Below, one piece after another: positions 30,020-63,363 of a stretch of DNA of 64,000 nucleotides. The stretch covers positions 64,001 to 128,000 of the forward strand of contig JBDRSV010000024.1 of NCBI GenBank assembly GCA_043824495.1. The letters run 5' to 3'. The first letter of the stretch is position 1, and each line of letters starts with the position of its first letter. The stretch is from Candidatus Aenigmatarchaeota archaeon. Its GTDB lineage: Archaea > Aenigmatarchaeota > Aenigmatarchaeia > QMZP01. Position numbers and translations under genes: made by a program. Below the pieces are notes generated by a model. That model did no database searches. It was not told the origin of the DNA and saw nothing but the letters and a program-made list of their open reading frames with translations.

Positions 30020-30085
30020 AAACAGGTATTCAAGAAGAGTCAATTCCTTCTGCCTGTTTTTAATTTGTCTAATTAAAGGGATATA
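30020..30085 (+). repeat. Island-end composite signal, copy 1: hairpin (30020-30059) plus TTGTCTAATTAAAGGGATATA (30065-30085)
   Basis: Read directly; the 21-mer is identical to 63343-63363. Confidence 0.9.
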
Positions 30086-30165
30086 GAAAGAAAAAATTAG
30101 AAATGTTCAGACATATAAACCTTATAAACTATAATGCTCAATAATTGGTATAATTCGAAAGGAAA

Positions 30166-30513
30166 ATGACATATATGAAAGCTAAGACAGATATTGGGGT
30201 TGGTTTGAAGCCACCTGAGCATAAATGTGAAGAAGAAAACTGTGCATGGCACGGGAAATTGCCTGTCAGAGGCAGAGTGTTTAGAGGTAGAGTTAGGGCC
30301 GCTAAATCTCAGAAAACAGCTATAATCGACTGGGGATTCCATAGATTCGTGCCTAAATACGAGAGATATGAGAGAAGAAAATCAAGAGTGACTGTTCATA
30401 ATCCTGGCTGTATGAATGCTAAAGAAGGGGATAATGTTGTAATAGCAGAATGCAGACCAATTTCAAAGACAAAGCACTTTGTAATTGTTGGTGTGCAAAA
30501 GGAAGGAAAATAA
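30166..30513 (+). CDS. rps17: 30S ribosomal protein S17
   Basis: CAWHGKLPVRGRVF, PKYERYERRKS, AECRPISKTKHF. Confidence 0.96.
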   Translation: MTYMKAKTDIGVGLKPPEHKCEEENCAWHGKLPVRGRVFRGRVRAAKSQKTAIIDWGFHRFVPKYERYERRKSRVTVHNPGCMNAKEGDNVVIAECRPISKTKHFVIVGVQKEGK

Positions 30514-30514
30514 T

Positions 30515-30913
30515 ATGAAAGCGATATCAGCCAATATGACAAGGTGTTTGCCTGTGGGAGCAAGAATTAATTGTGTAGATAATTCAGGAGCAAAAATAAT
30601 TAGAATAATTTCTGTAAGAGGATTTAAAGGTATACGAAGAACAATTCCTTCAACTGGTATTGCTGGTTTATTCCAGTGTAAAGTACTCAAAGGAAATGAG
30701 AAAGTTCGACATCTGGTTCATAAAGCTGTTATTGTAAGACAAACAAAAGAATTCAGAAGAGCAGACGGAACAAGAGTGTCATTCGAAGATAATGCAGCTG
30801 TATTAGTGGATGACAAAGGGGATCCAAAGGGTAATAGCATCAAGGGTCCTATTGCAAGGGAAGTTGTTGAGAGATTCCCAACAATTGGTAAGATTGCAAG
30901 CACAGTAGTTTAA
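30515..30913 (+). CDS. rpl14: 50S ribosomal protein L14
   Basis: CVDNSGAKI, VIVRQTKEFRR, FEDNAAV, IKGPIAREV; start trimmed to ATG 30515. Confidence 0.96.
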   Translation: MKAISANMTRCLPVGARINCVDNSGAKIIRIISVRGFKGIRRTIPSTGIAGLFQCKVLKGNEKVRHLVHKAVIVRQTKEFRRADGTRVSFEDNAAVLVDDKGDPKGNSIKGPIAREVVERFPTIGKIASTVV

Positions 30914-31266
30914 TGGTGACTGACATGACAGATAACATAGATTTCAGTGAATTCCAAAAAGTTAATATAAGAATAGGAACAATTGAAGCAGCTGAGCCTG
31001 TTGAGAACACAGAAAAGCTGTTGAGGCTTCAAATAAGTTTAGGCGAAGAGAAGAGACAAATTGTTTCTAGTATAGCAAAGGATTTCACACCTGATCAACT
31101 CATTGGTAAGCAAATACCAATACTTACCAACCTGGAGCCAAAAAGTTTCAGAGGAATTGAAAGTCAGGGTATGATCTTACTGGTCGTAGAGGAACAAGAT
31201 GGTTCAGAAAAGCTCACATTAATAACGCCTGAAAATAAAGTTCCTACAGGATCTACAGTCAGGTAA
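30913..31266 (+). CDS. Stand-alone OB-fold tRNA-binding protein (Trbp111/CsaA/MetRS C-terminal-like)
   Basis: IDFSEFQKVNIRIGTI, EKLLRLQISLG, TNLEPKSFRGIESQGMIL. Confidence 0.9.
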   Translation: MVTDMTDNIDFSEFQKVNIRIGTIEAAEPVENTEKLLRLQISLGEEKRQIVSSIAKDFTPDQLIGKQIPILTNLEPKSFRGIESQGMILLVVEEQDGSEKLTLITPENKVPTGSTVR

Positions 31267-31271
31267 GAGTA

Positions 31272-31616
31272 ATGTCAAAAAAGAGAACAGTTGCAATATT
31301 GGTGGGGATATTAATGTTGTTATTGGTATTCCTGGTCGTACTACCGCTATCATTCGACTCTTCATTGGGAGCTGACTCATTACCTGATTCAGCTTTTTAT
31401 GAAATTGAATTAGCAGGTGAGAACATAGCATGTGGTATATCACTTGATAGAAAAGCATGTTTGCTTGAACTTGCTAATGAAAGAGACCAAGAAGTGGAAG
31501 AGTTAAATATAAAACAAAGAAGATTATTCGATGAAGATGAAAAGCAACAGTATGAATTGCTCATAATTAAAACTGAAAACGCAGCTTCGAGATTAAGAAT
31601 CGAGGCACTAAAATAG
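31272..31616 (+). CDS. Hypothetical membrane-anchored protein
   Basis: N-terminal TM helix plus coiled-coil-like tail. Confidence 0.6.
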   Translation: MSKKRTVAILVGILMLLLVFLVVLPLSFDSSLGADSLPDSAFYEIELAGENIACGISLDRKACLLELANERDQEVEELNIKQRRLFDEDEKQQYELLIIKTENAASRLRIEALK

Positions 31617-31624
31617 GAGATCAA

Positions 31625-40138: not shown

Positions 40139-40669
40139 CTAGACACTATTCCACAATCTCTGAATTAGTTGATTCATTGTAATCTTTTTCTGGAACAGTT
40201 CTTTTACATCATTCTTTTCAATCTGCACTCTTATCTGTGCCTTATTCTCTAAATCATTCTTATAAGATTCAACTCTTGCAACTAACTCTGGTTTTATCGC
40301 TTCATTTTCAGCTTCTACTGCAAATTTTCTTACAAAAGAAGCATCCATAGCTAAAAGATCATTTGCAATTCGTTCTCTGTAAAGAGACTTAACCATTTTT
40401 GTTATTGTAGCTGCTTTTTCTACAGTAGCTGAATCAGATGCTTTCTGTACCACAAAAGCTTCTACACTCCCTGCACTAACAGGAACAGCTTCTTCTATAC
40501 CTAAAGTATCTCTGTAAATACTCTCTTTCTGTGCAGATGTTGTAGCTTGATGTTTTATTACATCAGATGATCTTATGTCTACTAGAGCAAATCTTCCAGA
40601 AGCTTGTACAAGAGACATTGATAAAACTAACAAAATTCCAATTATCATCAAAGTTAATTTATAGTTCAT
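40139..40669 (-). CDS. Secreted hypothetical protein
   Basis: Signal peptide MNYKLTLMIIGILLVLSMSLVQA. Confidence 0.65.
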   Translation of the reverse strand: MNYKLTLMIIGILLVLSMSLVQASGRFALVDIRSSDVIKHQATTSAQKESIYRDTLGIEEAVPVSAGSVEAFVVQKASDSATVEKAATITKMVKSLYRERIANDLLAMDASFVRKFAVEAENEAIKPELVARVESYKNDLENKAQIRVQIEKNDVKELFQKKITMNQLIQRLWNSV

Positions 40670-41465
40670 TGAACCACTCCGTTAATTTTATTGAGTGTGC
40701 TGGATATGTTTTATCCACCACCAATATTTTTTTCTTCTCTAAATTCTTAAGCGCCGCTGCAAGACTAGATTTTGATATTCCCGATTTCTTTTCCAGTTCA
40801 CTTCTCCTGATAACTCCTTTATTTTCTACGACTATATTTACAATCTTCTTTTCATTCACTGATAATGTTTTTATGACCGATTCCTTTTTGGATAACCCTG
40901 GTTTCATTTTGTGTATGATTAATCCAATTCCAATGATTATGATAATACCAATAGCTGCAAACACGAATATAATTGGGTCGGTAGTCTTTGGTAGTTCCTT
41001 TTCAAATGAATATGATATTTCAATTGAGTTTATTCCTGCCCACCGAAGTTCTGTTATATCTCCAGTTTGTATGTAAGCTGAAGGATTTGATGAAATTATT
41101 TTTGTGTTGTCAGGCATCAAAATAACAATGTTGTTATTTTGTAATCCTGTATCCATATTGAATTTCCAGTTACCGTCTGTTTTTGATGTGAGTAGAGATG
41201 TTGTGTACAAAACAACAGCTTCTCTAGTTTCTCCAATTGACACTTCTATATAATCATCATGCACTAGATGCAACCCGCCTCTTACTAGTACCTCATCCAC
41301 ATCTGCTGGGATTGGTAGACGATAAATACCTGATCCTGTTATTGTTATGCTTACTAATGTGTTTCCATTATCTTCTATGATTATGTAATATTCGGTTGCT
41401 TCTTGCGCATACACTGTCGGTATCAGCGCGAGCAATCCTATCATGATCAGCAATACAACTTTCAT
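40659..41465 (-). CDS. Membrane-spanning protein with extracellular domain and C-terminal winged HTH
   Basis: Signal peptide, single TM, LSVNEKKIV...RSELEKKSGISKSSLAAALKNLEKK. Confidence 0.75.
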   Translation of the reverse strand: MKVVLLIMIGLLALIPTVYAQEATEYYIIIEDNGNTLVSITITGSGIYRLPIPADVDEVLVRGGLHLVHDDYIEVSIGETREAVVLYTTSLLTSKTDGNWKFNMDTGLQNNNIVILMPDNTKIISSNPSAYIQTGDITELRWAGINSIEISYSFEKELPKTTDPIIFVFAAIGIIIIIGIGLIIHKMKPGLSKKESVIKTLSVNEKKIVNIVVENKGVIRRSELEKKSGISKSSLAAALKNLEKKKILVVDKTYPAHSIKLTEWFNEL

Positions 41466-41530
41466 ACATGAAAGTTAATTTTTGCCTACTTAAATATGAC
41501 CTGGGGGAAGGGTTCCCCAGGTATATAATT

Positions 41531-42226
41531 TTACCAGTAAAGACCTGGTCCGAATGGGCCGATTGGTACTTCTATTGGTTTATTTGGTTTAGGTTGTGGT
41601 GTGTTCCACTCTTCAGGGAACCCTGGTCCTATACCACAGTCCCCGCATACTGCTATTCGTGGGAATACTTTGTATTCACCGTATGAATAGTCTCCGTAGA
41701 TATCCATGGCTTTCCAGTGATTTCCACTGTACCAACCAAAGAAGAGCTCATCTTCATAGAAGCCAGCGAATTTGTGGTTCTCATAAATTCCCCATACTTT
41801 GACTCCATTATTATCTTCACCAACAAAATATCCATTTGCGTATGTTCCCCATATAACATTTTCTCCGTCATGTGTCCATAGAATAAATCTATGTGGTCCT
41901 GTGTAGTAGGGCATTGTTTCTCCTGTTGTATCAGAAGATCCTGTACTTGGAGCTTCCATTTTGTCTACTGTAGCTTCGTAACTTGAAGGTATAGAAGCTG
42001 TAGCTTCTGTTTTAAACTCTTCTAGCTTATCTGCTACATTCGTTTTCACGATTTCTATATGCTCTGTGTTCACGCTGTTAGCGAATCCAAATCCCCTCTT
42101 CATATCATTCAGTTTCTGAATAAGAGGTTCATAATCCTCGCTTGAAACAGCTTGTGTTGAGGCAATTCCTAGTGCCAATACTGACACGAAAACAATTGCC
42201 ATAATATATTTGGTGTCCATTTTCAC
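41531..42226 (-). CDS. Secreted hypothetical protein with Gly/aromatic-rich repeats
   Basis: Signal peptide; WGTYANGYFVG/WGIYENHKFAG/FGWYSGNHW repeats. Confidence 0.65.
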   Translation of the reverse strand: MKMDTKYIMAIVFVSVLALGIASTQAVSSEDYEPLIQKLNDMKRGFGFANSVNTEHIEIVKTNVADKLEEFKTEATASIPSSYEATVDKMEAPSTGSSDTTGETMPYYTGPHRFILWTHDGENVIWGTYANGYFVGEDNNGVKVWGIYENHKFAGFYEDELFFGWYSGNHWKAMDIYGDYSYGEYKVFPRIAVCGDCGIGPGFPEEWNTPQPKPNKPIEVPIGPFGPGLYW

Positions 42227-42295: not shown

Positions 42296-42353
42296 TATAT
42301 CCCTCTAATTAGACAATATAAAACAATCAGGTGCCGAGTGCACACCTAATTGT
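42296..42353 (-). repeat. Island-end composite signal, copy 2: motif 42296-42316 (1 mismatch) plus hairpin 42323-42353
   Basis: TATATCCCTCTAATTAGACAA on +; the hairpin has a G-T pair on the minus (sense) strand. Confidence 0.9.
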
Positions 42354-42370
42354 CCTTGCCAATCCTCTTC

Positions 42371-43477
42371 TCATCTCAGCTTCAAAAACGCTATATGAGG
42401 TGCAGGCAGCCACTTGACTAACGATTCAGTCCAAGAGAAAGACCATTTCAGCTTCTTCTTCATCTCGTGAACCTTCATACATTTCACCGAGACTAGATTC
42501 CAGTTCAGGATGCCGAAAGCTGTGCCCAAGAGACCACCGACAAGCATAACGAAGCCCTGTCCTACAAGATCCATTCCGGCGGAGGAAACGAGAAATTTGT
42601 AAGCGAGAAATCCGCCCAAGACTCCGTCAACTGCACACAACACTCTCTGGAAACAGTGAACCATCTTGATGATGTTCCAGATAAACTGACCGATAAATGT
42701 GAGGACCACCGAGATGCACACCAAGACAACGAAAATGACGGTCAGTGCAGTGAGAATTGGGTACCAGACAGAAAGTAGAAGCAAACTGAAGAGAATGTAT
42801 CCCATCGCGTTGAGATACCCGAGTTTTATTTCTCGGCGGTTCTTCTCCTCAAGGAAATACCTCCTTCTTAACACACCGATGTCGTATTTTTGGTCCGTGT
42901 GTCTGCTTATTCCGAGAGCCTCCCCAATACTCTTATAGTTGTACAAAACGTCTTCCCCGCTAGCGTCTTTCTTATCGACCATCATGAAAGGATAGAAGAA
43001 CCTTCCGCGATCACGACTTCCAACAAAAGCGAGGAAAGAAAGAACGCCGGAAAAGATCACAACACAGGCACCAGAGAGCGCCAACAGAAGAATGCTGCTG
43101 AGAGCGAGTTGAAGGATGTTCAGTGTTTCAGCATCTGCGAAAAGACCGGAAAATATGTGATGTGCTGGCCACAAGCCGAGCACAAGACTCGGAAAAAGGA
43201 ACGGGTGTGGCTTCGAGCATAACCAGTCCTTGGCTTTTCCGTAGTTGTCTCTGATATAAAACGGCCAAGTTCCGATATCATCCAACATCTCTCCGAGCAT
43301 CACTTGGATCGCTTTGGCCACCTCACGGAGGTCGTAACCAAAATAACCAGCTGCTCCGCCGGCCAGGAAAGCAGCAACCCACATGTACAACTTGTCCGGC
43401 ATCAGCCACATGGCAGTTGCACAGAACACGATGCCTCCAATGAAGCATCCGATTCCGATCTTCATCCAATCTTTCAT
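42371..43477 (-). CDS. Multi-pass membrane hypothetical protein
   Basis: 368 aa, many TM helices, SD gaaggag upstream. Confidence 0.75.
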   Translation of the reverse strand: MKDWMKIGIGCFIGGIVFCATAMWLMPDKLYMWVAAFLAGGAAGYFGYDLREVAKAIQVMLGEMLDDIGTWPFYIRDNYGKAKDWLCSKPHPFLFPSLVLGLWPAHHIFSGLFADAETLNILQLALSSILLLALSGACVVIFSGVLSFLAFVGSRDRGRFFYPFMMVDKKDASGEDVLYNYKSIGEALGISRHTDQKYDIGVLRRRYFLEEKNRREIKLGYLNAMGYILFSLLLLSVWYPILTALTVIFVVLVCISVVLTFIGQFIWNIIKMVHCFQRVLCAVDGVLGGFLAYKFLVSSAGMDLVGQGFVMLVGGLLGTAFGILNWNLVSVKCMKVHEMKKKLKWSFSWTESLVKWLPAPHIAFLKLR

Positions 43478-43544
43478 GGCGAAAATCTCCTTCTCGTTGT
43501 ATTTCTTTGTTTATAGTTATCGTCCTAGAATTAATTCAAAACAA

Positions 43545-44296: not shown

Positions 44297-44304
44297 TATA
44301 TAGT

Positions 44305-44694: not shown

Positions 44695-44714
44695 TTATTT
44701 TTTTTATCAGTTAT

Positions 44715-50300: not shown

Positions 50301-50835
50301 GGTAAGTGGCCTTCCGGAAGAGAATTGGTGAGGTCCTGTAACAGAACTCTATCTCATTCCGGGGTAAAGCTCAAGGCACAGCCAGAAGGAGACGTATTAC
50401 CTTGAGAAGTTGGTCTCCCGAGTGAAGAAATTCGAGATGTCCCATCGATGAAGGACATCTCTTCTCCACTCGGGCTCATTCGTCAGCCTGGAAGGAGAAG
50501 TGCAAGAGTTTTCGCGCAATTACTCTCTCTCCTCCCGGGAAATTTATGACCTCCTGGTCCGAAACTTGTGCCGCGGTAAACCAGAAGGCGTAACTGCTAG
50601 GCTATGTGACGGCCACAGCAGTAGGGATCGAATCCAATACACGAAAGACAGCTAAGACTAACTCTGTCTCGTGTGGTTTACGAGTAAAATTCAGAAATCG
50701 ATAGTCTTCGGCCTCTTCGAGGGAAACTGCTTAAGCGCTTAATTGCAGCGCGTTATGTTTCCTGGTAAGTGACCTGTTCTCTAGGATGTACCGAAGGCTA
50801 ACTTAGTTAGTCTCGGGAAATTCGCGTGTGATTGG
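47251..50835 (-). ncRNA. Candidate very large structured non-coding RNA region (island 4); strand and number of RNAs uncertain
   Basis: About 3.6 kb with no ORF longer than about 125 aa; many perfect 10-14 bp stems including a long-range 14-bp pair (48459-48472 with 48910-48923); no known RNA family recognised. Confidence 0.5.
48224..48589 (-). CDS. Possible small membrane-anchored protein inside island 4
   Basis: SD aaggag 6 nt before ATG and a hydrophobic N-terminus, but it overlaps predicted stems. Confidence 0.3.
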   Translation of the reverse strand: MLGIMTLCYLIYGSCIVYTADPIPFSGLDIITGSDTEQTWNEEFALHSHNPTPDRLRVVAVVAMTTESRIERMAELPAPLVWEPGGRATYSLRDGRDLRMKTVPSTSLSATGLSSRLAHVG

Positions 50836-50861
50836 TAGAAATGAAACATGAAATGTCCTTA

Positions 50862-50869
50862 TATATAAA
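50862..50869 (-). promoter_or_regulatory. Candidate archaeal TATA box (TTTATATA) pointing into island 4
   Basis: Lies about 25-30 nt before the AT-to-GC transition at about 50835; weak because the region is AT-rich and near-palindromic. Confidence 0.35.
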
Positions 50870-51004
50870 TGTAATTTAATTACTTAAATAGGTTGATGGA
50901 TAGCTTTAAAAAGGTACTATTAAAATTATTTTTTTGTGAAGGGATCGATATACCAAGTGCTTCCAAAAATAAAGAGTAGAAAAAAATAAGAGTGAAAAAA
51001 GCAA

Positions 51005-53570: not shown

Positions 53571-54432
53571 AATAATTACCTCGAGTGACCATTTGTCACT
53601 ATCTGATAGTTAAAATATGTATAAAGGGTTTATAAAGCTTTCGGTTAGCTTGCAGTGTGCTGTTTTTGAGCGTAAAAATCGTGTACGAAAGACAATTTTC
53701 TTGGGTTTCCATGACTTTTGTGCCAACGAAAGACATATTCTGTCTTTAGTAAGAGAGTTAATAAAGATTTCTGTCTCGCGCCTTATAAAGGATCCGAATT
53801 GGATATTTTATATAGTAATTAATTACTATTGTAGAGATCTTTATTTACTTAAGTCTTTACATAAATAATTCTCAAATACTTTTTGTCTTTGCTAAAGTTT
53901 AATGCAGATTTTCCTCGAAACTTTTGTGGAAATTCTTGAAATCAAATGTCTTCTAGTTTTGCTAGAGCTTTTGAAGACATGGAAACTCTCATAAAACCCC
54001 AACCGAAAAGTATTTAAACCCTTTGACTATAATTTCACTATAGATTAGTGACAACAAATTAAGAAATGTCTGAGTTATGTGTGGTGTCAAATCCTACATA
54101 ACTATCTTTACAATCTACGCAACTTTGAATAAAAAGAATTTCGGGTTAAACTCGCAATTCTAAACTCAGAGAAATTGAGTGCACAGGAATTTAGGCGCGG
54201 CCTAAAATCCCCATAAGAAATCCAAAAAAATGACACGCTTTGTGTCAAAAAATGTGATTTGAGGGGGTTTGATTTCCTTAGCTCTGAGTATCTACTTTTC
54301 GAAAACCACGAAGACTCGCGTAACAATTCTAAGCAATAAATATAGTGAAATTCCAGACTTCTGTAGACTTTCGCTGTCTGACATAGAAATTAACAAGTTG
54401 ACAATAAACGGAAACTTCTGGGAGGGATTGTC

Positions 54433-54795
54433 ATGAGAAATATCATGAGCTGTGTTTTCCTGCTGCTCACATTATTCCTGGTGAGTTGTGCGAAAAGTGG
54501 TCCGGAGCTGGGGAGTGATATCCGGATCAGTGGAACAATCGTCGACATGAGCGAAGGAGGTAGTAGGGATTTCCTGATCCAGTCCGGAGGAAAACTCTAC
54601 CATTTCGGTACTCGACTGCAATTTAAATGGAGTAAACTTCGTGCGGGACATTACGTCACCGTGGATGGGAAGTTTGGGGGACCGTGCGAGGAAGCCTCAA
54701 TGTTCAGACGCTACATGTACGACGACGAAGGGAACTTCATCAAGTCCCTCGAGGTCTATGACATCATCCATGTTTCGAACGTGGAGAGGCAGTGA
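54433..54795 (+). CDS. Putative lipoprotein
   Basis: LLLTLFLVS-C lipobox; SD ggaggga. Confidence 0.65.
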   Translation: MRNIMSCVFLLLTLFLVSCAKSGPELGSDIRISGTIVDMSEGGSRDFLIQSGGKLYHFGTRLQFKWSKLRAGHYVTVDGKFGGPCEEASMFRRYMYDDEGNFIKSLEVYDIIHVSNVERQ

Positions 54796-54924
54796 TCCCA
54801 CTGAGTTCATCCAATTCATCGGGTGGACCCAGATGAGATTATTGTCTAAAGGCTAAATCAGCAGGCCTTGAATTGTTGGTAGGGATCATTGGAAGATTCC
54901 CAAAAACATGGCAAGGAGGGCAAC

Positions 54925-55077
54925 ATGTCGCAGGGAACCAAAAACACCAAAGACACAGGAACAAGAGCGTTTCTGGTTATCGACGGAACTACAGGAGACC
55001 TCATTCCTGTGAAAGCATCGTCTGGACGAAAAGCTGAGCAAATCGCCGGCAGCGTAACCAGACAATCCCGCAAATAA
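54925..55077 (+). CDS. Small hypothetical protein (50 aa)
   Basis: SD aaggagg before ATG 54925 (MSQGTKNTKD...). Confidence 0.45.
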   Translation: MSQGTKNTKDTGTRAFLVIDGTTGDLIPVKASSGRKAEQIAGSVTRQSRK

Positions 55078-55295
55078 AATTACCCACTGTGAATTCCCCA
55101 GGAGTATCATCCGCCCGGAAGATACTCTGTTCTCCCCCATACTACCATAGGCCACACGGAGCTCATCAGGTTTTCACTTGGTGGGCTCCAGTGAGATCTT
55201 TGGTGGTTAACGTTCCATAACCGTTTCATTCACAACCTTTTGCCGACCTTGTCTGCATTGCAGCTCAAGGAAGTGTGTAAAGGAAGGAGAGTGTC

Positions 55296-55997
55296 ATGTT
55301 ATTGCATGTAACAGTAATAAGCCGCGGAGACAGAACAACGATCGATGTTCCCAGAACAGAATTCAACTGGGATACCAATCAATGTCGCGTAGTTGAAGGT
55401 GCAGAGGAAGCTGAAAGAAATCTCGGGGTGGCGGAGAATCTCGAAATCCGTAAACCCGCGGCTTACCAGGGACCCTATTTATACTGTATTGTAGAGGTGG
55501 GGTTCGAGGAAATTTGTTTTCCCCCGACTTTCCTCAAGTGGATCGAGAATGTTCCCGAGGATGAGAAAAGAGCCATCCTTATCGTTCCCACCAAAACCAT
55601 CCGAAAGGCCGATGATAGTCACTATATGGGATCTATAGATCGTTATAGGTATTATCCTCATGGTGAAGTCTTCCTGATTGGTCGCAGAATCATCGTGAGG
55701 AACATCTACCTATCACCTGATAACATCAAGATGGTGGTGGATAAAATCCTTGCCCGACTGAGTGACGGCCTGTTCCTCCGGTTGGCCTTTGAGTTTCTCC
55801 AGGCTACGCCGATCAGTGACAATCCTACGGTGACTGGAGAACATATCACCATGTTGGATAATCTCTTCACGGGGACGCGTTCCCTTCGGAGAGGAGATTC
55901 AACTCGTCGCGAACGGTTCAATCATGTTCGGGCCGTGATTGGACATATGGCCAAACACGGGATAGTTCTGTCTGGCAAGATCGAACCCGTGAAGTAA
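55296..55997 (+). CDS. Hypothetical protein
   Basis: 233 aa, SD aaggaaggag. Confidence 0.7.
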   Translation: MLLHVTVISRGDRTTIDVPRTEFNWDTNQCRVVEGAEEAERNLGVAENLEIRKPAAYQGPYLYCIVEVGFEEICFPPTFLKWIENVPEDEKRAILIVPTKTIRKADDSHYMGSIDRYRYYPHGEVFLIGRRIIVRNIYLSPDNIKMVVDKILARLSDGLFLRLAFEFLQATPISDNPTVTGEHITMLDNLFTGTRSLRRGDSTRRERFNHVRAVIGHMAKHGIVLSGKIEPVK

Positions 55998-56050
55998 TCA
56001 ACGGCTTGGAAACCAAGTCAAATCAACGACAATGAAAGTTGAGGTGTAAT

Positions 56051-56371
56051 ATGAATAGGCGAATACAGAGTATGATTGTGATGACTGCGACTTTGATAGC
56101 TGTTGCAGTCTTTCTCCAAGTCTCACAGCTTCACGCGGCACATTTGATGGCAACCGCAATTGCAATTGCGGTTGTGGTGATGATCGTTGTTAACATGGGA
56201 AGAGTTCCCAACACTCGGCAGAAGTTTCGGAACTTCTCTGTCGGAGCCGTTTTCGGGAGCATCTTCCTGTGGGAGTTGTTCAAGGTTACGTTCTTGAATC
56301 ACCCTGCGGCTCTTTGGAGTGTGGTTGTACTCGGAGCTGCGGCAGTCTCATTTCTGACGTTCCGCCGGTAG
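56051..56371 (+). CDS. Four-TM small membrane protein
   Basis: SD gaggtg; hydrophobic. Confidence 0.65.
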   Translation: MNRRIQSMIVMTATLIAVAVFLQVSQLHAAHLMATAIAIAVVVMIVVNMGRVPNTRQKFRNFSVGAVFGSIFLWELFKVTFLNHPAALWSVVVLGAAAVSFLTFRR

Positions 56372-56385
56372 TACTGAAGTTCACC

Positions 56386-56433
56386 GGGGATCCCGATCAA
56401 TCTGGTTGGGATCCCCTCAACCTGACAATAAAC
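56386..56433 (+). repeat. Intergenic repeat family A, copy 1 (GGGGATCC hairpin plus TGACAAT)
   Basis: 41/48 nt identical to 57297-57344. Confidence 0.85.
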
Positions 56434-56442
56434 TGTTGTTAA

Positions 56443-57288
56443 ATGTTCCATTACACCAAGGAGGGCGCAATGCGTCACCAACGTTTCATCACCACAGTAC
56501 TGGCACTCATGTTCTTGACTGTGCCGGCAATGTTCAGCAGTGCGGTTCTGGCCGATCCGATTTCATCCGGAGACGGTCAAATGTATGTGGTCCAACAGGG
56601 AGATTGGTTGACGCGGCCGATCATCCCGACACTCTACTCGGATGTGTTGAAGCCAGGCGACTTGAAGAGTGCTCTCTGGATCGCTGACATCTTCGATACA
56701 CTCAACATTAACATCACCCACCGCGACAAAATTCGGGCGTATGATACCATCATGGCGCCGTCATTCGCGGCGTTGAAGAAGTACAAACATCTCGCACCCG
56801 CCGACGTGGTCATCAACCTGTTCGCCACGTATGATATCGCGTCCATGGAACTTGTGGACGCCGAGTTTGTAAGAAAGCGCATCGAGGACTTTGAGGGTAC
56901 TTACTGGTACAAAAATCGAGCCGCGTGGGCCCGAATTTTCGGAGTCGGTAATGGCACGTATGTCTGCGGTGACACCGTGATGCCGTTCTCATGGTTCATG
57001 AGCTGCAATACGGACGGTAATACGGGAATGACTATCTCCATCTCCATGGACGAAGGAGATCTCACCGCAGTTCGCAAGGTTCCAGGTACACGTAACGGAT
57101 TCTGGGGAGCCAGTCGTGACAATAAGTTCACATACGTGGGCTTCGGCAACGACTGGATCGATCGTTGCGACTGGAATGACGAGACCGAGAGCTGGGACAT
57201 TCCACCAGTTCTGAATGAGATCGTCGGAACTCTCAACAACTTTCCATTCGTCCAGTATATGACCGTCGTCGCGTACGAACTGGAATAG
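56443..57288 (+). CDS. Secreted hypothetical protein (paralog of 57350..58714)
   Basis: Signal peptide; shared GNG-x-Y...F-x-W...NTDGN motif; likely start ATG 56470 after SD aaggaggg. Confidence 0.7.
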   Translation: MFHYTKEGAMRHQRFITTVLALMFLTVPAMFSSAVLADPISSGDGQMYVVQQGDWLTRPIIPTLYSDVLKPGDLKSALWIADIFDTLNINITHRDKIRAYDTIMAPSFAALKKYKHLAPADVVINLFATYDIASMELVDAEFVRKRIEDFEGTYWYKNRAAWARIFGVGNGTYVCGDTVMPFSWFMSCNTDGNTGMTISISMDEGDLTAVRKVPGTRNGFWGASRDNKFTYVGFGNDWIDRCDWNDETESWDIPPVLNEIVGTLNNFPFVQYMTVVAYELE

Positions 57289-57296
57289 TTGTTACA

Positions 57297-57344
57297 GGGG
57301 ATCCTGACCAATTCGGTTGGGATCCCTTCAACTTGACAATTAAC
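57297..57344 (+). repeat. Intergenic repeat family A, copy 2
   Basis: See copy 1. Confidence 0.85.
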
Positions 57345-57349
57345 GTAAC

Positions 57350-58714
57350 ATGTTAACAATGAATACCAACAGAGAAGGAGAAAGTCAAATGTGTAACATC
57401 ATCATCCGTACCATCGTGGCACTGGCACTCATGGTTCTGATCGTGCCGGCCATCACCAACATCGCAATTGCGGACGGAACGCCGTGTGGTCTCACCGTAG
57501 GTAATGGCAACGACATCGATCGCGACTTCGTTGCATTCCTCAACAAAGAAGGAATCAGATGGTTAACAATCGAGGAATTCGTTGAGTGCTACTCCCAACT
57601 GATCGGTCCAGGTAGTACCATGTTGAGCACCACTCGGGGATATGGCTGGGGATATATTGACGTTCCTTTCAAGTTTGGCGATTCGGTCGCGTCTATAGTG
57701 AACATGGAGATCATGCCAGGCGTCCGGATCAATATGGCTTGGGATCAAGCGGTCATCTTCTACAAATATGCGAATAATCATGGAATGCATATTCTGAAGA
57801 AGACGGAGAATGACCGTGAGGTTCCGGCCTGGAGCGGCTTGATTGATGAAGCTACGGTGCGTCAACATGTCAACGGCTTCGAAGTGTCCGCGCAGATTCC
57901 GAGTGATGTTCTGGAATCGGATGTTGCGATTATCCGGATGCGAGATTTAAAGGACGCCTACTTGGCCGAGAACACCGACGTTATCGAGTCTTACCTCATC
58001 GAGAAGTTTGACCTCGACGACGATTCCGAGCCGTATTCTGACAATCGGCCAAATATATTTCATCGCAGTGGCGAAGTCTTACTGGACTCGGAGATGTTCT
58101 TCGTGTATGAAGGTCTGGAAATTCTCAATCTCATCATCAATGATCGGTGGATTGGTGTACGATTCCCCGGATCGACCTATATCCACTTCATCAACATCGG
58201 ACCGAGAAAAGTCCACGACTTGAATGCCAACTTCGTCGAGACGAAAACTCCGAACAACACCGGCGGTCAGATCAGTATCCCGCAGGATGTGATCGAAAAG
58301 ATGACGTGGATCGATTCCGTCTATTCGGATAGGATGTCCCCGAATCCGATGTTAGGTTTCGGAAACGGTGAGTACCTGGCGAGCTCTGGGATCGTTTCGT
58401 TCGCGTGGGTTGCCTGGACCAACACCGATGGCAACCTCCAGTTCTATCTCAATGTTCTCCTTAACATTGATCATCAGGTGACGATCGAGACTGTGTCTCA
58501 CTACGGTGGGCCTGATGTTTGGAGGGCGTGGAGTCCGAATCAGACCTGCACAGAGGTGGAGACTGGAAACGGCTGGTGTTATATTCACTGTTCCCAGTCG
58601 GAAAGTGGACCTCGAATCTGCGACTATAGACAAGCCTTGGACGATGCAGTCGCGGCGTTCAATGGCATCGATTTCTTCACGAACATGAAGGTGATCATGT
58701 ACACGGTGAAGTAA
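57350..58714 (+). CDS. Secreted hypothetical protein (paralog of 56443..57288)
   Basis: Signal peptide (MCNIIIRTIVALALMVLIVPA...); likely start ATG 57389 after SD aaggag. Confidence 0.7.
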   Translation: MLTMNTNREGESQMCNIIIRTIVALALMVLIVPAITNIAIADGTPCGLTVGNGNDIDRDFVAFLNKEGIRWLTIEEFVECYSQLIGPGSTMLSTTRGYGWGYIDVPFKFGDSVASIVNMEIMPGVRINMAWDQAVIFYKYANNHGMHILKKTENDREVPAWSGLIDEATVRQHVNGFEVSAQIPSDVLESDVAIIRMRDLKDAYLAENTDVIESYLIEKFDLDDDSEPYSDNRPNIFHRSGEVLLDSEMFFVYEGLEILNLIINDRWIGVRFPGSTYIHFINIGPRKVHDLNANFVETKTPNNTGGQISIPQDVIEKMTWIDSVYSDRMSPNPMLGFGNGEYLASSGIVSFAWVAWTNTDGNLQFYLNVLLNIDHQVTIETVSHYGGPDVWRAWSPNQTCTEVETGNGWCYIHCSQSESGPRICDYRQALDDAVAAFNGIDFFTNMKVIMYTVK

Positions 58715-58999
58715 AGCCGAACGCCACGAATTACTAATCCGCTCTTCTTCCCAAAGAAGTGTGGCTAGTGTGAAAGGAGTATGGGAAGGTTCCACAGTAG
58801 TAGCATCAACGGCAAAAAGTAAAAGACAAAAAAATGAAGGCCAAACCCGAGGAGGAACTCGAAGTGAAGACGAAACGAAGGTCATGCCAATATCCCATTT
58901 CGCCCATGATGGCGACTCATATTCTCATAGTCTGACCGGCCGCCGGCGACGCCACGGGCCTCTTATATAGTTAGCGGGGCCCATCGCCAATGCAGTCAA

Positions 59000-59086
59000 A
59001 ATCCCGGGTAGGCTTCAACCCCTACCCGGGGTTCCAAATGAGCTCATCTAGTTCAGATATTTTCTAGGTGGGCCCATTTGGAATTG
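59000..59086 (+). repeat. Intergenic repeat family B (double hairpin), copy upstream of 59148 ORF
   Basis: AATCCCGGG...CCCGGG-TTCCAAATGAGCTCAT...GGTGGGCCCATTTGGAATTG; matches 59632-59723; start approximate to 1-2 nt. Confidence 0.8.
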
Positions 59087-59147
59087 TAAATGATTGTTGA
59101 CTGTTCAATGAGCGTTCCGAAAGGAACATTGCAAGGAGATTTTTATC

Positions 59148-59612
59148 ATGACACAGCAGATGACATCAGTACCAGATGGTTGGGGCGGAGCAGGTGGCGA
59201 CAGTCTCGGCACAGATGCACTCGAGCTTCTGAAGAAAATGGGATTCGACAATGCAATGGGACAAGCGTTGCTCGGCAGCTTTAATCCACAGGGTTTCGTG
59301 GATGCGCTTCTCACGTTCCGACCGTTCCCGGTTGGCGGAGTCTCTCCCGAAGCTCGGAACGAGAGCAGAGAAGCTCAGTGGATTTATCTCACATGGATCT
59401 TCACCAGTCGGCAGAGAGCCTCCTTTCCCGTCGAAGGGGTGAGTGGCCTTGCTGACTTCGTGGATATTGTCCGGAAAGCACAGAGCGATGCGGACGCGAA
59501 CGAACATGCAGTTCGAATCTTGTCCAGGTTTGGGTGTGTCGATCTCCTCGTTGGTGAAGGTCGGACCTTCTTGCACACGAAAGCCATCGATTTCGCTAAT
59601 TCCCAAACGTAA
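59148..59612 (+). CDS. Hypothetical protein flanked by family B repeats
   Basis: 154 aa, SD aaggag. Confidence 0.6.
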   Translation: MTQQMTSVPDGWGGAGGDSLGTDALELLKKMGFDNAMGQALLGSFNPQGFVDALLTFRPFPVGGVSPEARNESREAQWIYLTWIFTSRQRASFPVEGVSGLADFVDIVRKAQSDADANEHAVRILSRFGCVDLLVGEGRTFLHTKAIDFANSQT

Positions 59613-59631
59613 GTCCGCGACATCACCAACC

Positions 59632-59723
59632 AATCCCGGGAACAAGACAGTTCAATCTGTTCCCGGGTTCCAAATGAGTTCATGTGGTTTGATTTCTTGA
59701 CTAGGTGGGCTCATTTGGAATTG
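59632..59723 (+). repeat. Intergenic repeat family B, copy downstream of 59148 ORF
   Basis: AATCCCGGGAAC...GTTCCCGGG-TTCCAAATGAGTTCAT...GGTGGGCTCATTTGGAATTG. Confidence 0.85.
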
Positions 59724-59812
59724 AGTTGTAGTAGAACCATAACCCATTCACGACCTTTTGTCGACCCTGTCTGATATCAGTTCAGGGAAGAATCTAAAGG
59801 AAGGAGAATTCA

Positions 59813-61804
59813 ATGCATTCACTCCAAGAAGTAAAAGAACACATCAAGACAACGATGTGCAAAGCGGTTCAAGTGAATCGCTGGATGATGTGGATCGCGC
59901 TCGTCGTCATATGTATTGTGGCGATTGAGTTGTTCGTTTGGTTGCCTTCACTGCCAGAAGAGGCGCAAGACGTCCTTTCCCCATTCATAGAAGGTGGAAA
60001 CAGGAATGCAGGCACGTTATTACTCCACTTCTTCTGTTTCATGGGTGCATTGGTGTCTATCTTCTTCAAAATCTTCGGTCCGATCACAAGATCTTATGAT
60101 AATACACTTTTCTGGGAACTCCATCTGGGTGGAACAAAAAGGATCGGATTCCGCCTGGGTGACTGGCCTACTGGTGTGTTCATTGAAGCGGCAGACGTTC
60201 TCAGTGATTTACCAGCGAATGTCAGGAAAAGAATTCCGTGCACCCAGTATGCTGTTTCTCGAATTAAAAGCGTAACGGAATTCGACGACAGCGGTAGAGC
60301 CATCGTCCCACGGGATGAGAGTGTGTCTTCTGTGAGATTCGCCACAGTGGATGATGGTCGACCGGGAACGCTCGACTTGGATAGGGTGTTCTCCTGGGCG
60401 CATAAGTACATCCGAGGCTATTATATCTGCCTGGCCTTTACATGTCTGTTCCTGGCTTGGCCGGTGATAACCGGCTACTCGATCGCGAGCTTCATGCACG
60501 ACCTCCCGGTCCAGATCCACGACATCGCTGTTGACCCATCTCAGAATTCGACGAAAGTAATCGTCAGTTCTGATCGCAATGTCCGGTATGACTCAAGAAT
60601 CGAGGTTGCAGATGACTGTGTCTGCTCCCGATTCATTCTGAACATATACCCGGCAAAGTGTGATTTCCTGGAGGAGATCTTTGCCAGTGACTATGTAATG
60701 AGAGGGTATTATGGGGCTCGAACCAACACCGGGCAGCTCTCCGAAGCAACTGGATGGAATGGTGTCAGGCAAATCAACATCAGACAAGTTGGTGACACCA
60801 TCAAGATTGTACTCGGCCTGAAAGATATGGTTGAGTACGCAATGAGTCGCTCGTCAGAGCACGGCACAAAGGATCTGGTCGTTGGTCTGGACACGCCAGT
60901 CGAGTCCAAACAGACATCGGGCGAATATTGGACCGCGAACAAGTTCGCAGATCAGTACGAAGTTCCTGACAACAATGCCCGTCGCGAGTCATCGTGTGGT
61001 GAATGGAAGTCGTTCGTCAGATTTGTATCTGCGGATAGTAACAACGTATACTTCTCTGCCAGATACGGTGGAGTGTACAGAGTGGATATGAATGGATGGA
61101 TTGACACGATCGTCCCAAACAACGAGGTTGATTACTACCACACGCCAGTGAGTAGCGGTAATAAACTCGCTGGCATCCATGATGGGAATGATCTCTGTAT
61201 TGTGGATATGGATACCAGAAAGGTCAAGAACGTCACCCATGGACAAATATGGGACGTCGATTGGGTCTCGGACACCGGACTCGTGTTCTGGAGAGATCTT
61301 GATGGTGTCTGTTACTACTCCCTCTCTGCGGACTCGTCTTGGTCTTTGAACAAAAAGGCCAAATTCCCATCTGTGTGTGGGGATAAGATATTCTACCTCA
61401 CACACTTACGCACCCATCGGGATGAGTGGGATTCCACACTAATCTGGGAGATGAGCCTTGACGGGTCTTCCAGAACCGTAGCTAGGTTGAAGGGAGGCTA
61501 CTCACACCTGAGTATGTCTTCGGACTGCTCAATTGCAGTTCTGAAAGAGCCGTATAGTTCTGACCGCACGTGGGTCAATAGAATCAAAACATTCTCCTTC
61601 AACGACTGCATTATGACAACACTGACGGAGTGTGGTGAGTCTCCAAGGATCACTACAGACAATCGAATTGTTTATGTCAAGTTGTATCCTGTGGAGGGGC
61701 GTGGGGATTTCAACTCGAACTCAGAAGTCCGGATCATGGATCTGGACGGCAGAAACGACACCTTGATTGTCAACAGAGAGGAACTCCGGAAGTTTCCGAT
61801 GTAA
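59813..61804 (+). CDS. Membrane protein with extracellular domain and C-terminal TolB-like beta-propeller
   Basis: Three TM segments; C-terminal WD/TolB-like repeats (SPRITTDNRIVYVK...EVRIMDLDG). Confidence 0.65.
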   Translation: MHSLQEVKEHIKTTMCKAVQVNRWMMWIALVVICIVAIELFVWLPSLPEEAQDVLSPFIEGGNRNAGTLLLHFFCFMGALVSIFFKIFGPITRSYDNTLFWELHLGGTKRIGFRLGDWPTGVFIEAADVLSDLPANVRKRIPCTQYAVSRIKSVTEFDDSGRAIVPRDESVSSVRFATVDDGRPGTLDLDRVFSWAHKYIRGYYICLAFTCLFLAWPVITGYSIASFMHDLPVQIHDIAVDPSQNSTKVIVSSDRNVRYDSRIEVADDCVCSRFILNIYPAKCDFLEEIFASDYVMRGYYGARTNTGQLSEATGWNGVRQINIRQVGDTIKIVLGLKDMVEYAMSRSSEHGTKDLVVGLDTPVESKQTSGEYWTANKFADQYEVPDNNARRESSCGEWKSFVRFVSADSNNVYFSARYGGVYRVDMNGWIDTIVPNNEVDYYHTPVSSGNKLAGIHDGNDLCIVDMDTRKVKNVTHGQIWDVDWVSDTGLVFWRDLDGVCYYSLSADSSWSLNKKAKFPSVCGDKIFYLTHLRTHRDEWDSTLIWEMSLDGSSRTVARLKGGYSHLSMSSDCSIAVLKEPYSSDRTWVNRIKTFSFNDCIMTTLTECGESPRITTDNRIVYVKLYPVEGRGDFNSNSEVRIMDLDGRNDTLIVNREELRKFPM

Positions 61805-61823
61805 GCGTGTAGTTATCATTCAC

Positions 61824-61853
61824 ACCCCGCCTGGATTCAATTCCAGGCGGGGT
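61824..61853 (+). other. Perfect 12-bp intergenic hairpin with TTCAAT loop
   Basis: accccgcctgga-ttcaat-tccaggcggggt; no U-tract follows. Confidence 0.8.
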
Positions 61854-61885
61854 TGATCATGAAATAAAGAGAAGGGGAGTGTACC

Positions 61886-62890
61886 ATGATAAAAATGTTT
61901 GGTAAACTGCTCTGCGGAGTTGCCATGGTTGTAGGCGGGTTGATCGCAGTGCTAGCGACGATCACTTTCTTCGCAGTCATTGGGAACATGGTAATCGATA
62001 CTTACAAAATTGGCATGCATTTCTCTCCGTTGTTACCGACAGCCTTCATCAGCCTTTGGGTCGCCGCCGTCATGCTTTGGATTACCACCCTCGGCGCGAA
62101 AGGCCTCGGATGGTCGGTATCATGCCATTTGAAATTCAACATCGGTTACGGTTCCATGCTGCTGGGAATCGTCGGCGTAATTGTGATCCTGGGATACTAC
62201 ACATATCTCTTCACCTTTGCTGACATCCCAGGACAACTGGTTGTCCTCAGTATTGACGGTATGGAGACGTTCAGTCGGGTGGAAGTTCGTCTCATGAAAA
62301 TCATGGATTTGGTGCCTCTACTATTCGCATCCATTTGCACCGGATTCACCGGACTGGCTCTCTGGTGGGGACGAATACAATCAATCCGGTTTCCGTTCTC
62401 CCGTTGGTTCGGAATCGCTGTCGCGATGATTCTTGTTATTGTCATGGCAGTGCCTGTTCTTGGTCAGGCCGATTCCACAGGCTTCACTGAGGCCAAGACC
62501 CATCTTTGTGGGATGCAGATGAATTATGCTGAATATTTCGGTGAGTTGTTCGCGGCGCGTTTCGCATCCCGGGAACTTGATATCAATATCTTCGATGCCG
62601 ATGAAGAGTGGATGTGGAGAATGGTTGATTCAACATTCTACCGAAGGGATACACTCTTTGCTGTCAGAGACGGGTTCTCGTCGGTATTTAATATGGCCGA
62701 AGAGAAGGCCGAGCTTGTGGCCGCGACTGATCTGGCGAGAATTGTCGGGAAAATCAGGGGAATCCCGGAAGGTGAACGCGTTCCTTTAAGGTATTGTTTC
62801 CGTGGGGGACAGTTCATCAAGAAAGATACAAACAGAGGTTACCATGCGGTTGTAGTGCAGATTCTTCCGCTGTCTGAGAATCTGGAGTGA
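61886..62890 (+). CDS. Multi-pass membrane hypothetical protein with soluble C-terminal domain
   Basis: About five TM helices; SD gaagggga. Confidence 0.7.
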   Translation: MIKMFGKLLCGVAMVVGGLIAVLATITFFAVIGNMVIDTYKIGMHFSPLLPTAFISLWVAAVMLWITTLGAKGLGWSVSCHLKFNIGYGSMLLGIVGVIVILGYYTYLFTFADIPGQLVVLSIDGMETFSRVEVRLMKIMDLVPLLFASICTGFTGLALWWGRIQSIRFPFSRWFGIAVAMILVIVMAVPVLGQADSTGFTEAKTHLCGMQMNYAEYFGELFAARFASRELDINIFDADEEWMWRMVDSTFYRRDTLFAVRDGFSSVFNMAEEKAELVAATDLARIVGKIRGIPEGERVPLRYCFRGGQFIKKDTNRGYHAVVVQILPLSENLE

Positions 62891-62931
62891 AACCAACATT
62901 ATCCTTTCAACATTTGATGGAGGACGGGTCA

Positions 62932-63277
62932 TGAAACTAGTCTTAAATCGTAGGCATCTTATAGATCCCGCCAGTGTCATTGGGCCACGCGTGAACTGGT
63001 TGTTCTCCTGAATGGCCAAGAGGTTCAGGTGCGTCCTATCGACCAGACGATAATTCTGATCGGACGCGATCCGGAATGTGACGTAATACTCGATAATCGC
63101 GCCGTCGACTTCTTCCATGCTCACATTGATTTCGGCGAGAATTTTGTAGTAATTGACAACGTGTCACTCAACGGCACGTTTGTCAACGGAGAAAAGGTCG
63201 AGAAAGCGGTTCTCCGTCCTGGTGATGTGATCACAATAGCCAGGTATGAGATTCACATCCGGTCCCTCCGGAAGTAG
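62932..63277 (+). pseudogene. FHA-domain protein, apparently frameshifted near its 5' end
   Basis: LIGRDPECD...VDFFHAHI...DNVSLNGTFVNG...LRPGDVITI; the SD-preceded ATG 62932 is in a different frame that stops at about 63012. Confidence 0.6.
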
Positions 63278-63301
63278 ACGACGCGATGGTAGTCTTGTTC
63301 C

Positions 63302-63363
63302 AATTCCGTACAGGTGTTTACAAAATCTGTGCGGGATTTGTATTGTCTAATTAAAGGGATATA
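63302..63363 (+). repeat. Island-end composite signal, copy 5: hairpin 63302-63338 plus motif 63343-63363
   Basis: 12-bp stem fully paired only when two G-T pairs are allowed on +; the 21-mer is identical to copy 1. Confidence 0.9.

Follow-up and report, generated by a model that had tools for sequence, protein, structure and literature searches.

A box resembling the left end of IS6-family insertion sequences closes hairpin-ended cassettes of bacterial-type genes in an Aenigmatarchaeota genome

The stretch of Candidatus Aenigmatarchaeota contig JBDRSV010000024.1 analysed here (64,000 nucleotides (nt), hereafter the window) corresponds to C24:64001-128000 of a draft genome, labelled G000, of 1.01 Mb in 29 contigs, with a guanine-plus-cytosine content (GC) of 36% and a completeness of 80%. 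Its GC-richer blocks of foreign DNA follow one repeated format, in which an archaeal promoter and leader are followed by bacterial-type cargo, a hairpin and a box that appears to derive from an insertion sequence (IS), and the cargo turns over at fixed sites among relatives. About 6% of the genome's DNA consists of bacterial-type genes, mostly for secreted and membrane proteins, held in this cassette format. The reading that we favour, at somewhat less than even confidence, is a composite one, by which the box is an IS6-derived boundary and anchor where cassettes insert and exchange.

The core of the box is a 21-mer, TTGTCTAATTAAAGGGATATA, present in the window at 30065-30085 (plus strand, no mismatch), 42296-42316 (minus strand, one mismatch), 44715-44735 (minus, two), 47230-47250 (minus, three) and 63343-63363 (plus, none), against 0.01 matches expected by chance from shuffled sequence; a preliminary description of this DNA, made from the letters alone, had given all five correctly in coordinates, strand and mismatch count. 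The genome as a whole holds 19 copies at up to three mismatches, and allowing a fourth mismatch adds none. Two-state GC segmentation of the whole genome yielded 31 GC-rich segments, 19 of which bear a box copy, the other 12 being short. Each of the 19 copies lies at one end of its segment, the cargo 3' end, with a GC of about 0.43-0.56 before the box and 0.32-0.45 after it, so that the placement at compositional switches first seen in the window, where all five GC-rich blocks terminate in the 21-mer, extends to the complete set. The motif could have been a common site in ordinary host intergenic DNA, as the same description had allowed, but all 19 copies close GC-rich blocks and a single degenerate copy lies elsewhere. 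The conservation described there is real, although the conserved part is longer than 21 bp: it begins with TTT-(A/G)-T-A and makes up a box of about 27 bases, written TTT-R-TA followed by TTGTCWANTTAAAGGGATATA. The T's at -6, -5 and -4 before the 21-mer are found in 18, 19 and 19 of the 19 copies, and 13 box positions are invariant among them (T -5, T -4, T1, G2, C4, A6, T8 and GGGATA at 13-18). A hidden Markov model of the box, run with nhmmer on the genome, recovered the 19 copies at E <1e-4 and then one degenerate copy at E 0.68, which speaks against a counterpart of the motif at the cassette 5' ends. Conservation of the box spans 17 or more genera, and an exact-pattern scan of metagenome contigs gave 59 box loci, many of them cassette ends with the order hairpin, TTTRTA, box, while a viral contig collection held no exact match. 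The 19 cassettes of the genome are spread over about 15 loci on four contigs, some of them stacked head to tail. A second similar stretch (GGCNTTGCACAAWAAC...CACAAAAAC) follows the box at window 63364-63410, C11:7174-7220 and C5:1318-1350, with 82% identity over 73 nt between two of the three copies.

The affiliation of the box emerges from metagenome contigs of related archaea. In seven of these, unrelated DNA is followed by GATA, the identical 21-mer and then at least 45 further identical nt; four of the seven break within about 120 nt past the 21-mer, which is the signature of a multi-copy element. The L164 element is about 1 kb long (8521-9518) and bounded by 16-bp terminal inverted repeats (GATAYTGTCAACTTAA). 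Its first open reading frame (ORF1; 97 amino acids (aa)) contains an IS1/IS1595 zinc-binding domain above cut-off and matches positions 1-52 of the IS6 transposase model, and the 203-aa product of its ORF2 hits both DDE_Tnp_IS240 and the stretch 63-201 of the IS6 model. The inverted repeats of IS6 elements measure 15-20 bp and share a conserved cTGTt motif (PMC7986276). Given the identical 21-mer at L164-type ends together with IS6 reading frames, the box, judged by its sequence, is the left-end region of an IS6-family element, with a repeat core followed by AGGGATATA at the place where a transposase promoter is expected. Relative to the orientation of this end the cassette cargo lies outside the element, box conservation reaches the TTT beyond the IS tip, and the junction between variable and conserved sequence falls within about 3 nt of that tip. 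The preliminary description had read the motif without a partner, overlooking both its identity as an IS6 inverted-repeat and promoter region and a gene at 44305-44694 that bears directly upon it.

This gene (plus strand) is present in single copy between the cassettes here called B and A. From sequence matches and synteny its 129-aa product is a stand-alone zinc-ribbon and helix-turn-helix (HTH) N-terminal domain of an IS6-family transposase, which we term InsA-like. It is 40% identical to L164 ORF1 (E 5e-22) and matches NCBIfam transpos_IS6 at positions 2-52 and, weakly, the zinc domain; the E-value of the former match, 5e-05, falls short of the whole-protein cut-off because the domain alone is present. 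Of 36 genomes in the family, 19 encode an orthologue of about 100 aa, with conserved CPxC...CxxCxRK, RMRF and VSRWT motifs, the first and the last of which are kept in 20 orthologues. In family genomes the catalytic DDE part is absent and the zinc-ribbon/HTH part is retained beside argS, which is a recurrent neighbour in five genera and on contig L212 and lies 4.3 kb off in the window. Such recurrent synteny marks the InsA-like gene as a chromosomal gene passed on by vertical inheritance, as opposed to a leftover piece of an IS. In the window, three AT-rich ORFs (176, 268 and 231 aa; 40139-42226, minus strand) and cassette A lie between the two genes and, as argS and the InsA-like gene are adjacent in five other genera, the inserted block includes DNA of host-like composition too.

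Box and gene tend to occur together. Among 61 genomes, 17 have both, five the box only, three the gene only and 36 neither, so that the InsA-like gene is found in 17 of 22 box-positive and 3 of 39 box-negative genomes, an association that is strong but not a formal test, since the genomes are related and not independent. A box copy adjoins the InsA-like gene in G000 and in at least five further genera, with G010, G008, G030 and G013 among the cases. In the window, box copy 3 (44715-44735) stands 20 nt past its stop codon, and the degenerate copy (44273-44300, minus strand) directly before its ATG, where on the plus strand it takes the place of a promoter or operator, a layout shared by at least eight relatives. 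The reverse-complement box (ATCCCTTTAAATAGAC) lies 22-25 nt before the InsA-like ATG in at least eight genomes, the position of a leaderless-mRNA promoter, and in G027, G034 and G021 the order hairpin, TTTATA, box, promoter, InsA-like gene is that of an IS left end. The InsA-like protein thus probably binds the box. In IS1, a shortened form of the transposase, InsA, binds the ends of the element and acts as a repressor of the promoter within the left inverted repeat. The protein described here is similar in that a zinc finger and HTH correspond to the N-terminal part of a transposase and in that its probable site overlaps a left-end promoter and is present at its own promoter; it differs in being encoded by a vertically inherited chromosomal gene beside argS with no transposase frame, and in having sites at up to 19 cassette ends.

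A purely regulatory box has to be weighed at this point. It would be an operator or promoter of the InsA-like regulator, or in variants of this account an antisense promoter into the foreign cassette, a terminator-reinforcing roadblock or an upstream element of the next promoter, and the cassettes would move by homologous or illegitimate recombination, the box playing no role in the joining of DNA. We regard this as rather unlikely, although the leaderless-promoter position just described agrees with it, as do a TATA-like TAWTTAAA at the box centre and a further TATA that usually follows 15-40 nt past the box, with a co-oriented gene within about 300 nt in 13 of 19 cases. Further, the hairpins behave as RNA structures of the sense strand, and a 322-bp direct repeat suggests homologous, Campbell-type integration for one cassette (both detailed below). 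However, a regulatory role leaves unexplained why unrelated bacterial DNA is constantly joined with a hairpin 2-10 nt before the same box. All 19 boxes close foreign blocks, and the one degenerate copy alone serves a host gene; at four of the 19, moreover, the first sizeable downstream ORF is convergent, and about 400 nt pass without the start of a co-oriented one. Less probable still is that the boxes are decaying solo IS6 ends beside terminators, devoid of present function. The identity of the 21-mer with an IS terminal repeat region, in an organism without a found transposase, would suit such decay, but the 19 copies are sharp with only one degenerate intermediate, the box persists across at least 17 genera, 13 of its positions being invariant among the 19 copies of G000, the conserved TTT lies outside the IS tip, real IS copies do not stand by hairpins, and the InsA-like gene is intact and conserved.

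The hairpins were characterised in 87 non-redundant box copies of the non-IS type from the genome, its relatives and metagenomes. Folding of the 50 nt that precede the box gives a mean free energy (dG) of -13.8 kcal/mol, against -9.3 for a control placed 200 nt upstream, and the 3' foot of the hairpin lies mostly 2-10 nt from the 21-mer, while the sequences of the stems vary; true IS copies lack an adjacent hairpin (mean dG -4.2). The fold of the sense strand is the stabler in 49 of 69 strong hairpins and that of the antisense strand in 19 (Wilcoxon p = 3.5e-5), and strong hairpins have 124 G-U pairs in the cargo sense against 64 in the antisense. These biases in stability and pairing argue that the hairpins act as single strands of mRNA sense. 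A variable hairpin before each box had been claimed from the window alone and is upheld, that of the 47230 copy being weak or nested, and the sense-strand G-T wobbles noted in three window hairpins prove general. The simplest reading, drawn from these features, is that the hairpin would serve as a terminator or 3' stabiliser of the cargo transcript. There is a stem-loop with a bias to the transcribed strand, and T is all but invariant at -6 to -4; the T-tract, at 3-5, is short and fails a 5-of-8 T rule. AT-rich host DNA showed no excess of intrinsic terminators, and simple terminator and promoter scans, which are uninformative for these hairpins, gave no enrichment. Class C group II introns are mobile elements that insert just past bacterial intrinsic terminators. 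The cassettes share with terminators and with these introns a G+C-rich stem-loop and T-tract, on the mRNA strand, directly before conserved sequence. They differ from terminators in the shortness of the tract and in belonging to an archaeon whose host genes have no hairpin excess, and from class C introns in having no linked intron RNA or reverse transcriptase.

Of the capture mechanism that the preliminary description had put forward, one part stands, namely that each foreign-gene cassette ends in a structure together with a fixed sequence, at a place where cargo is exchanged, whereas the three routes it offered (integron-like recombination, capture of reverse-transcribed RNA and rolling-circle transposition) are unsupported. 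Its statement that no integrase, reverse transcriptase or HUH gene is present is true within the window and does not extend to the genome, which has several tyrosine recombinases, one reverse transcriptase and one Y1 HUH transposase; a search for such genes co-occurring with the motif, as it had proposed, was run and none convincingly co-occurs. Integron-like recombination, with a tyrosine recombinase acting on the folded single strand of hairpin and box, would suit the variable hairpin, the orientation of genes toward the site and the tandem arrays, and at least five tyrosine recombinase genes exist in the genome, one of them 53 nt from a box with its 3' end duplicated around that cassette. 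Even so we hold it very unlikely. As had been noted for the window copies, the motif lacks attC cores: none of the 19 sites has R'/R'' cores, R' (GTTRRRY) being absent at or near the box on the top strand in all 19, with one bottom-strand match and one site with R''-like (RYYYAAC) heptamers upstream. The conserved part is one-sided and lies outside the hairpin, the roughly 15 loci are scattered, and each cassette has its own TATA-containing 5' module in place of the common promoter of an integron array. Recombination of attC proceeds via its bottom strand, unlike the bias of stability toward the mRNA strand seen here. The neighbouring recombinase is a further candidate partner that had to be rejected, as there is no box near its homologues and strong homologues of this 407-aa protein are found in 5 of the 22 genomes with a box and in 11 of the 39 without one. 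Archaeal integrons do exist, with canonical attC and IntI (PMC9668308).

Capture of RNA, by which terminated bacterial transcripts would be reverse transcribed and joined through their 3' U-tract to a nicked box, is highly improbable. It would account for GC-rich DNA that extends from tens of nt before the first Shine-Dalgarno sequence to a terminator-like hairpin and U-tract, and for the sense-strand bias of that hairpin, and the genome has one reverse transcriptase gene (C10:73179-73823). However, this gene is not linked to the box, reverse transcriptase occurs in 5 of the 22 genomes that have the box and in 9 of the 39 that lack it, and in the closest bacterial loci the genes of cassette 1 do not lie side by side, so that donor synteny is wanting there. 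A 9-kb cassette with several internal hairpins and promoter-like spacers is unlike a single transcript, and the conserved 5' leader and promoter would be left unexplained.

We assign a comparably slight probability to the last group of alternatives, HUH rolling-circle or single-strand transposition with a subterminal hairpin, or an assembly artefact. Hairpins do lie near one end, and an IS200/IS605-type Y1 gene is present at C23:4162-4518, though not linked to the box and weakly associated with it among genomes (7 of 22 box-positive, 6 of 39 box-negative). Y1 enzymes recognise hairpins of fixed sequence, unlike the box-side hairpins, which vary, and a search of the genome for Y2/IS91 enzymes gave no match, as was also the case in control genomes. 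Misjoining of islands from other genomes at the 21-mer, against which the preliminary description had cautioned, is practically excluded: the copies differ by 1-3 mismatches, other assemblies and samples are alike, and two independent Logan contigs from run SRR26275509 reproduce the junctions. One of these runs from L2 to L26, including cassette 1 in the same arrangement, and the other agrees with all 6,546 nt of window 44149-50694 (100% identity) and takes in two boxes.

Comparison with relatives points to fixed sites with changing cargo. L199 is syntenic with C5:113-143 kb, with flanking genes at 44-86% amino-acid identity. At C5:140806 and C5:113438 similarity to L199 begins at the box, there being none upstream of the T-tract, and at C5:140806 a similarity of about 80% runs on through the next promoter region and gene. 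The L199 cargo proteins at these two sites have no homologue in G000, and the cassette at C5:140806 amounts to 1.1 kb of small lipoproteins in L199 against 12.5 kb in G000. At C5:122524, L199 has no cassette and only a doubtful box-like remnant; the spacer of the empty site opposite C5:118509-122544 (L199:8040-8075) has ATGTCAATTCAGACAAAGG, which could be a decayed box or a chance resemblance. After HerA, three unrelated inserts are found in G000, L200 and L212, and the sequence directly after HerA in L212 equals that about 30 nt past the box in L200. The filled site of L200 and the empty one of L212 therefore define a unit from the TATA just past the HerA stop codon to about 30 nt past the box. 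A further unit, C24:47351-49251 (outside the window), extends from a TATA to 47 nt past the box and is flanked by the 322-bp direct repeat, 93.5% identical. The repeat copies (C24:47029-47350 and 49252-49573) are the 3' end of the 407-aa tyrosine recombinase gene, encoding a C-terminal zinc ribbon, and are what Campbell-type integration of a circle with a fragment of that gene would leave behind.

In the window itself, cassette 1 together with a methyltransferase gene splits the rnp1-S17 operon of G000. The comparison of empty sites that had been suggested for this locus bears out an insertion, since in four relatives rnp1 and S17 are uninterrupted, spaced by 170-550 nt with no box between. 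Spacers of relatives (L039:1840-2007, L041:1818-2074 and L042:1210-1507) contain a conserved stem-loop (GCTGAGTTAC...stem...GTAGAGAGGC), which may be a small RNA or leader and is not at that spot in G000, where the cassette sits. The same-genus genome G001, about 68% identical and fragmented, has one cargo protein in common, at 39%, and look-ups of exact proteins for strain variants returned no record for two proteins and only the same arrangement for two others. The filled and empty sites and the comparisons at the box edge together reveal two types of junction, insertion of a whole unit and replacement of cargo just upstream of a resident box.

Taken together, these data allow the construction of a model in which each cassette unit starts with a promoter and leader of archaeal kind, continues with bacterial-type genes that are GC-richer and have strong Shine-Dalgarno sites, and closes with a hairpin and the box, with some 30-47 nt beyond it. 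A sense-strand RNA hairpin and short U-tract would end or stabilise the cargo transcript, and the box, presumably occupied by the InsA-like protein, would set the foreign unit apart from the next promoter. The box may further act as a fixed anchor for insertion and exchange of cargo, by analogy with the exchange of flanking DNA at the ends of IS26-family elements. The catalytic partner could be an IS6 transposase acting in trans, another recombinase or host recombination. The IS6 family is known to form cointegrates and translocatable units and to carry out targeted exchange at IS ends (PMC7986276).

Several observations count against this composite reading. Both binding of the box and joining directed by it are argued from sequence. 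No IS6 DDE transposase was found in the genome, which is 80% complete, by tblastn or PF13610; in 61 related genomes the enzyme is present in three (2 of 22 box-positive, 1 of 39 box-negative), with unrelated ends. A second, right-end inverted repeat was likewise not found in the genome, where only left-end-type copies with cargo outside occur, and no 8-bp target duplications were seen at the cassettes. With a single IS-type end each and their cargo outside it, the cassettes are not IS6-type transposons. True IS copies have no hairpin preference, and the constant spacing of hairpin and box is therefore not explained by IS6 biology. In addition, the 5' modules are heterogeneous, the two junction types have no single mechanism covering both, and orthologous boxes with different cargo could also arise by homologous recombination in flanking host genes. 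No tested model accounts for bacterial DNA always joining the box 2-10 nt past a hairpin. A bolder proposal, which we consider doubtful, is a site-specific capture platform in DPANN archaea, in which a transposase-derived binding protein and the IS-end box would form landing pads scattered over the chromosome; foreign DNA from bacteria, with a terminator hairpin at its end, would be linked to such pads and supplied with an archaeal promoter and leader.

The cassettes of the window illustrate the format and its diversity. All cargo ORFs are transcribed toward the box, as the preliminary description had it; most have strong GGAGG-type ribosome-binding sites, and many start with signal peptides or lipoboxes. 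The 5' modules are AT-rich and of at least two kinds. In class I a TATA is separated by about 25 nt from TCATGYTCCAC, beyond which come GCTGAC...TTTAGAC and hairpins, and three class I leaders (cassette A, C5:33 and C24:49230) are 80-88% identical; class II contains GACTTTTGTC-type repeats. Enrichment of k-mers in the 5' modules is modest, about 7-fold in 6 of 19. Structural RNA genes were considered as an explanation of the GC-rich blocks and rejected, as the window contains neither an Rfam match nor a tRNA.

Cassette 1, on the plus strand, begins with a promoter-like AT-rich leader with GCTGAC..TTAGAC boxes and a hairpin (25990-26250; read from the sequence as a putative 5' module). Its cargo (26251-30002), assigned from Pfam and bacterial relatives, encodes a secreted M20-like peptidase, an M32 carboxypeptidase and a 163-aa orphan, followed by hairpin 1 (AAACAGG...CCTGTTT) with its T-tract at 30020-30059 and box copy 1 (30065-30085), with the S17 start 81 nt downstream. 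Proteins of Zixibacteria, Ignavibacteria and Planctomycetota share 55-70% identity with the M32 peptidase, all 80 kept loci being bacterial; the neighbours of this peptidase gene in the closest bacterial loci are not conserved and do not include its cassette 1 partners. Cassette A (minus strand) is closed by box copy 2 (42296-42316) and hairpin 2 (42320-42358). Its cargo of two membrane-protein genes (42371-44096), the first apparently inserted within the class I leader, is preceded by the class I 5' module at 44097-44270 (TATA, about 25 nt, TCATGTTCCAC, GCTGAC, hairpins). Cassette B, also on the minus strand, is closed by box copy 3 (44715-44735), which faces the 3' end of the InsA-like gene, and by hairpin 3 (GGGAGAG...CTCTCCC; 44742-44778). 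Its cargo (44810-46684) encodes a 624-aa secreted protein with a type IX secretion system (T9SS) C-terminal sorting domain, and its AT-rich 5' module covers 46685-47229. For both the peptidases and the T9SS-tailed protein, Pfam agrees with what had been read from the translations.

Cassette C (minus strand) abuts this module with box copy 4 (47230-47250) and a weak, nested hairpin 4 (47262-47314), and its own 5' module (50831-51004) stands right after the HerA stop codon. Its body is GC-rich, hairpin-rich and without long ORFs (47315-50830); over the 3.6 kb of 47251-50830 no ORF in any frame exceeds about 125 codons. Local folding there is strong, with a mean z of -2.0 compared with -0.8 for coding cargo, and 10 of 23 folding windows fall below -2. 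Neither Rfam nor a search of 40 relatives yielded a match to the body, which may represent decayed genes or one large structured RNA. The 9-kb cassette (plus strand) has a class II 5' module with GACTT-type repeats (53960-54432) and a cargo of at least nine mostly secreted or membrane orphan genes with internal hairpins (54433-63277), and ends in hairpin 5 (63302-63338) and box copy 5 (63343-63363). Within it, intergenic modules are repeated at 56371-56443 and 57288-57350 (GGGGATCC-type hairpins, then TCAACYTGACAATWAAC) and, as a second pair, at 59003-59030 and about 59650-59700 (CCCGGG-type hairpins, then TTCCAAATGAG). In sequence these modules look like bacterial terminator/promoter spacers between paralogous genes.

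Among known systems, the IS6/IS26 family (Varani et al., 2021; PMC7986276) is similar in that the box, with its TGT-containing core, corresponds to the left inverted-repeat region of such an element, with an N-terminal HTH/zinc domain as the likely binder, and in that unrelated blocks follow one another in direct orientation, every junction bearing one and the same short sequence and lying no more than about 3 nt from the IS tip, the place at which flanking DNA is exchanged by enzymes of the IS26 type. The cassettes differ in having no DDE transposase found, no second repeat and about 25 bp instead of a whole IS at each junction. Further, the box always has a hairpin next to it, a promoter and leader belong to every cassette, and no 8-bp duplications were seen. 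Pseudo-compound transposons and translocatable units of IS26 carry whole direct IS copies around their cargo, whereas here there is only the box of about 27 bp, with the InsA-like gene in one gap. Mobile insertion cassettes (MICs, or transporter IS) carry passenger genes between IS-type inverted repeats and are moved in trans; they are alike in holding passenger genes without a transposase and in being marked by an IS-derived repeat, and unlike in having two inverted ends with the cargo within, as opposed to one end with the cargo outside. Integron cassettes and clusters of attC sites lacking integron-integrases (CALINs) also have a 3' site with a variable hairpin and conserved bases, a partly cross-domain cargo, tandem arrays and, at any one site, cargo that varies from relative to relative (Ghaly et al., 2022; PMC9668308). 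The cassettes described here are distinguished from these by the want of R'/R'' cores and of a linked IntI, the conserved part outside the hairpin, the opposite strand bias, a promoter in each cassette and sites scattered on the chromosome. They thus miss defining features of integrons, IS6 elements, IS26 units and MICs, yet share some with each, and full-text literature searches returned no description of this cassette architecture.

The genomes of DPANN archaea are very small, and these organisms are thought to be reliant on imported genes; we know of no account of how they take up and express bacterial genes. A study of gene transfer in Aenigmarchaeota makes no mention of transposases, islands or cassettes (PMC8407114). 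The link to an IS6 end, combined with a domesticated transposase binding domain, provides a protein and DNA-site pair amenable to bench experiments. If the box regulates only, a prokaryotic transposase fragment would have been recruited to control horizontally acquired genes; if it directs the joining of DNA, the cassettes would represent a system separate from integrons. Should the boxes serve as landing pads, the mechanism would be distinct from integrons, IS26 units and MICs, and would provide a route for the import of genes from bacteria to archaea.

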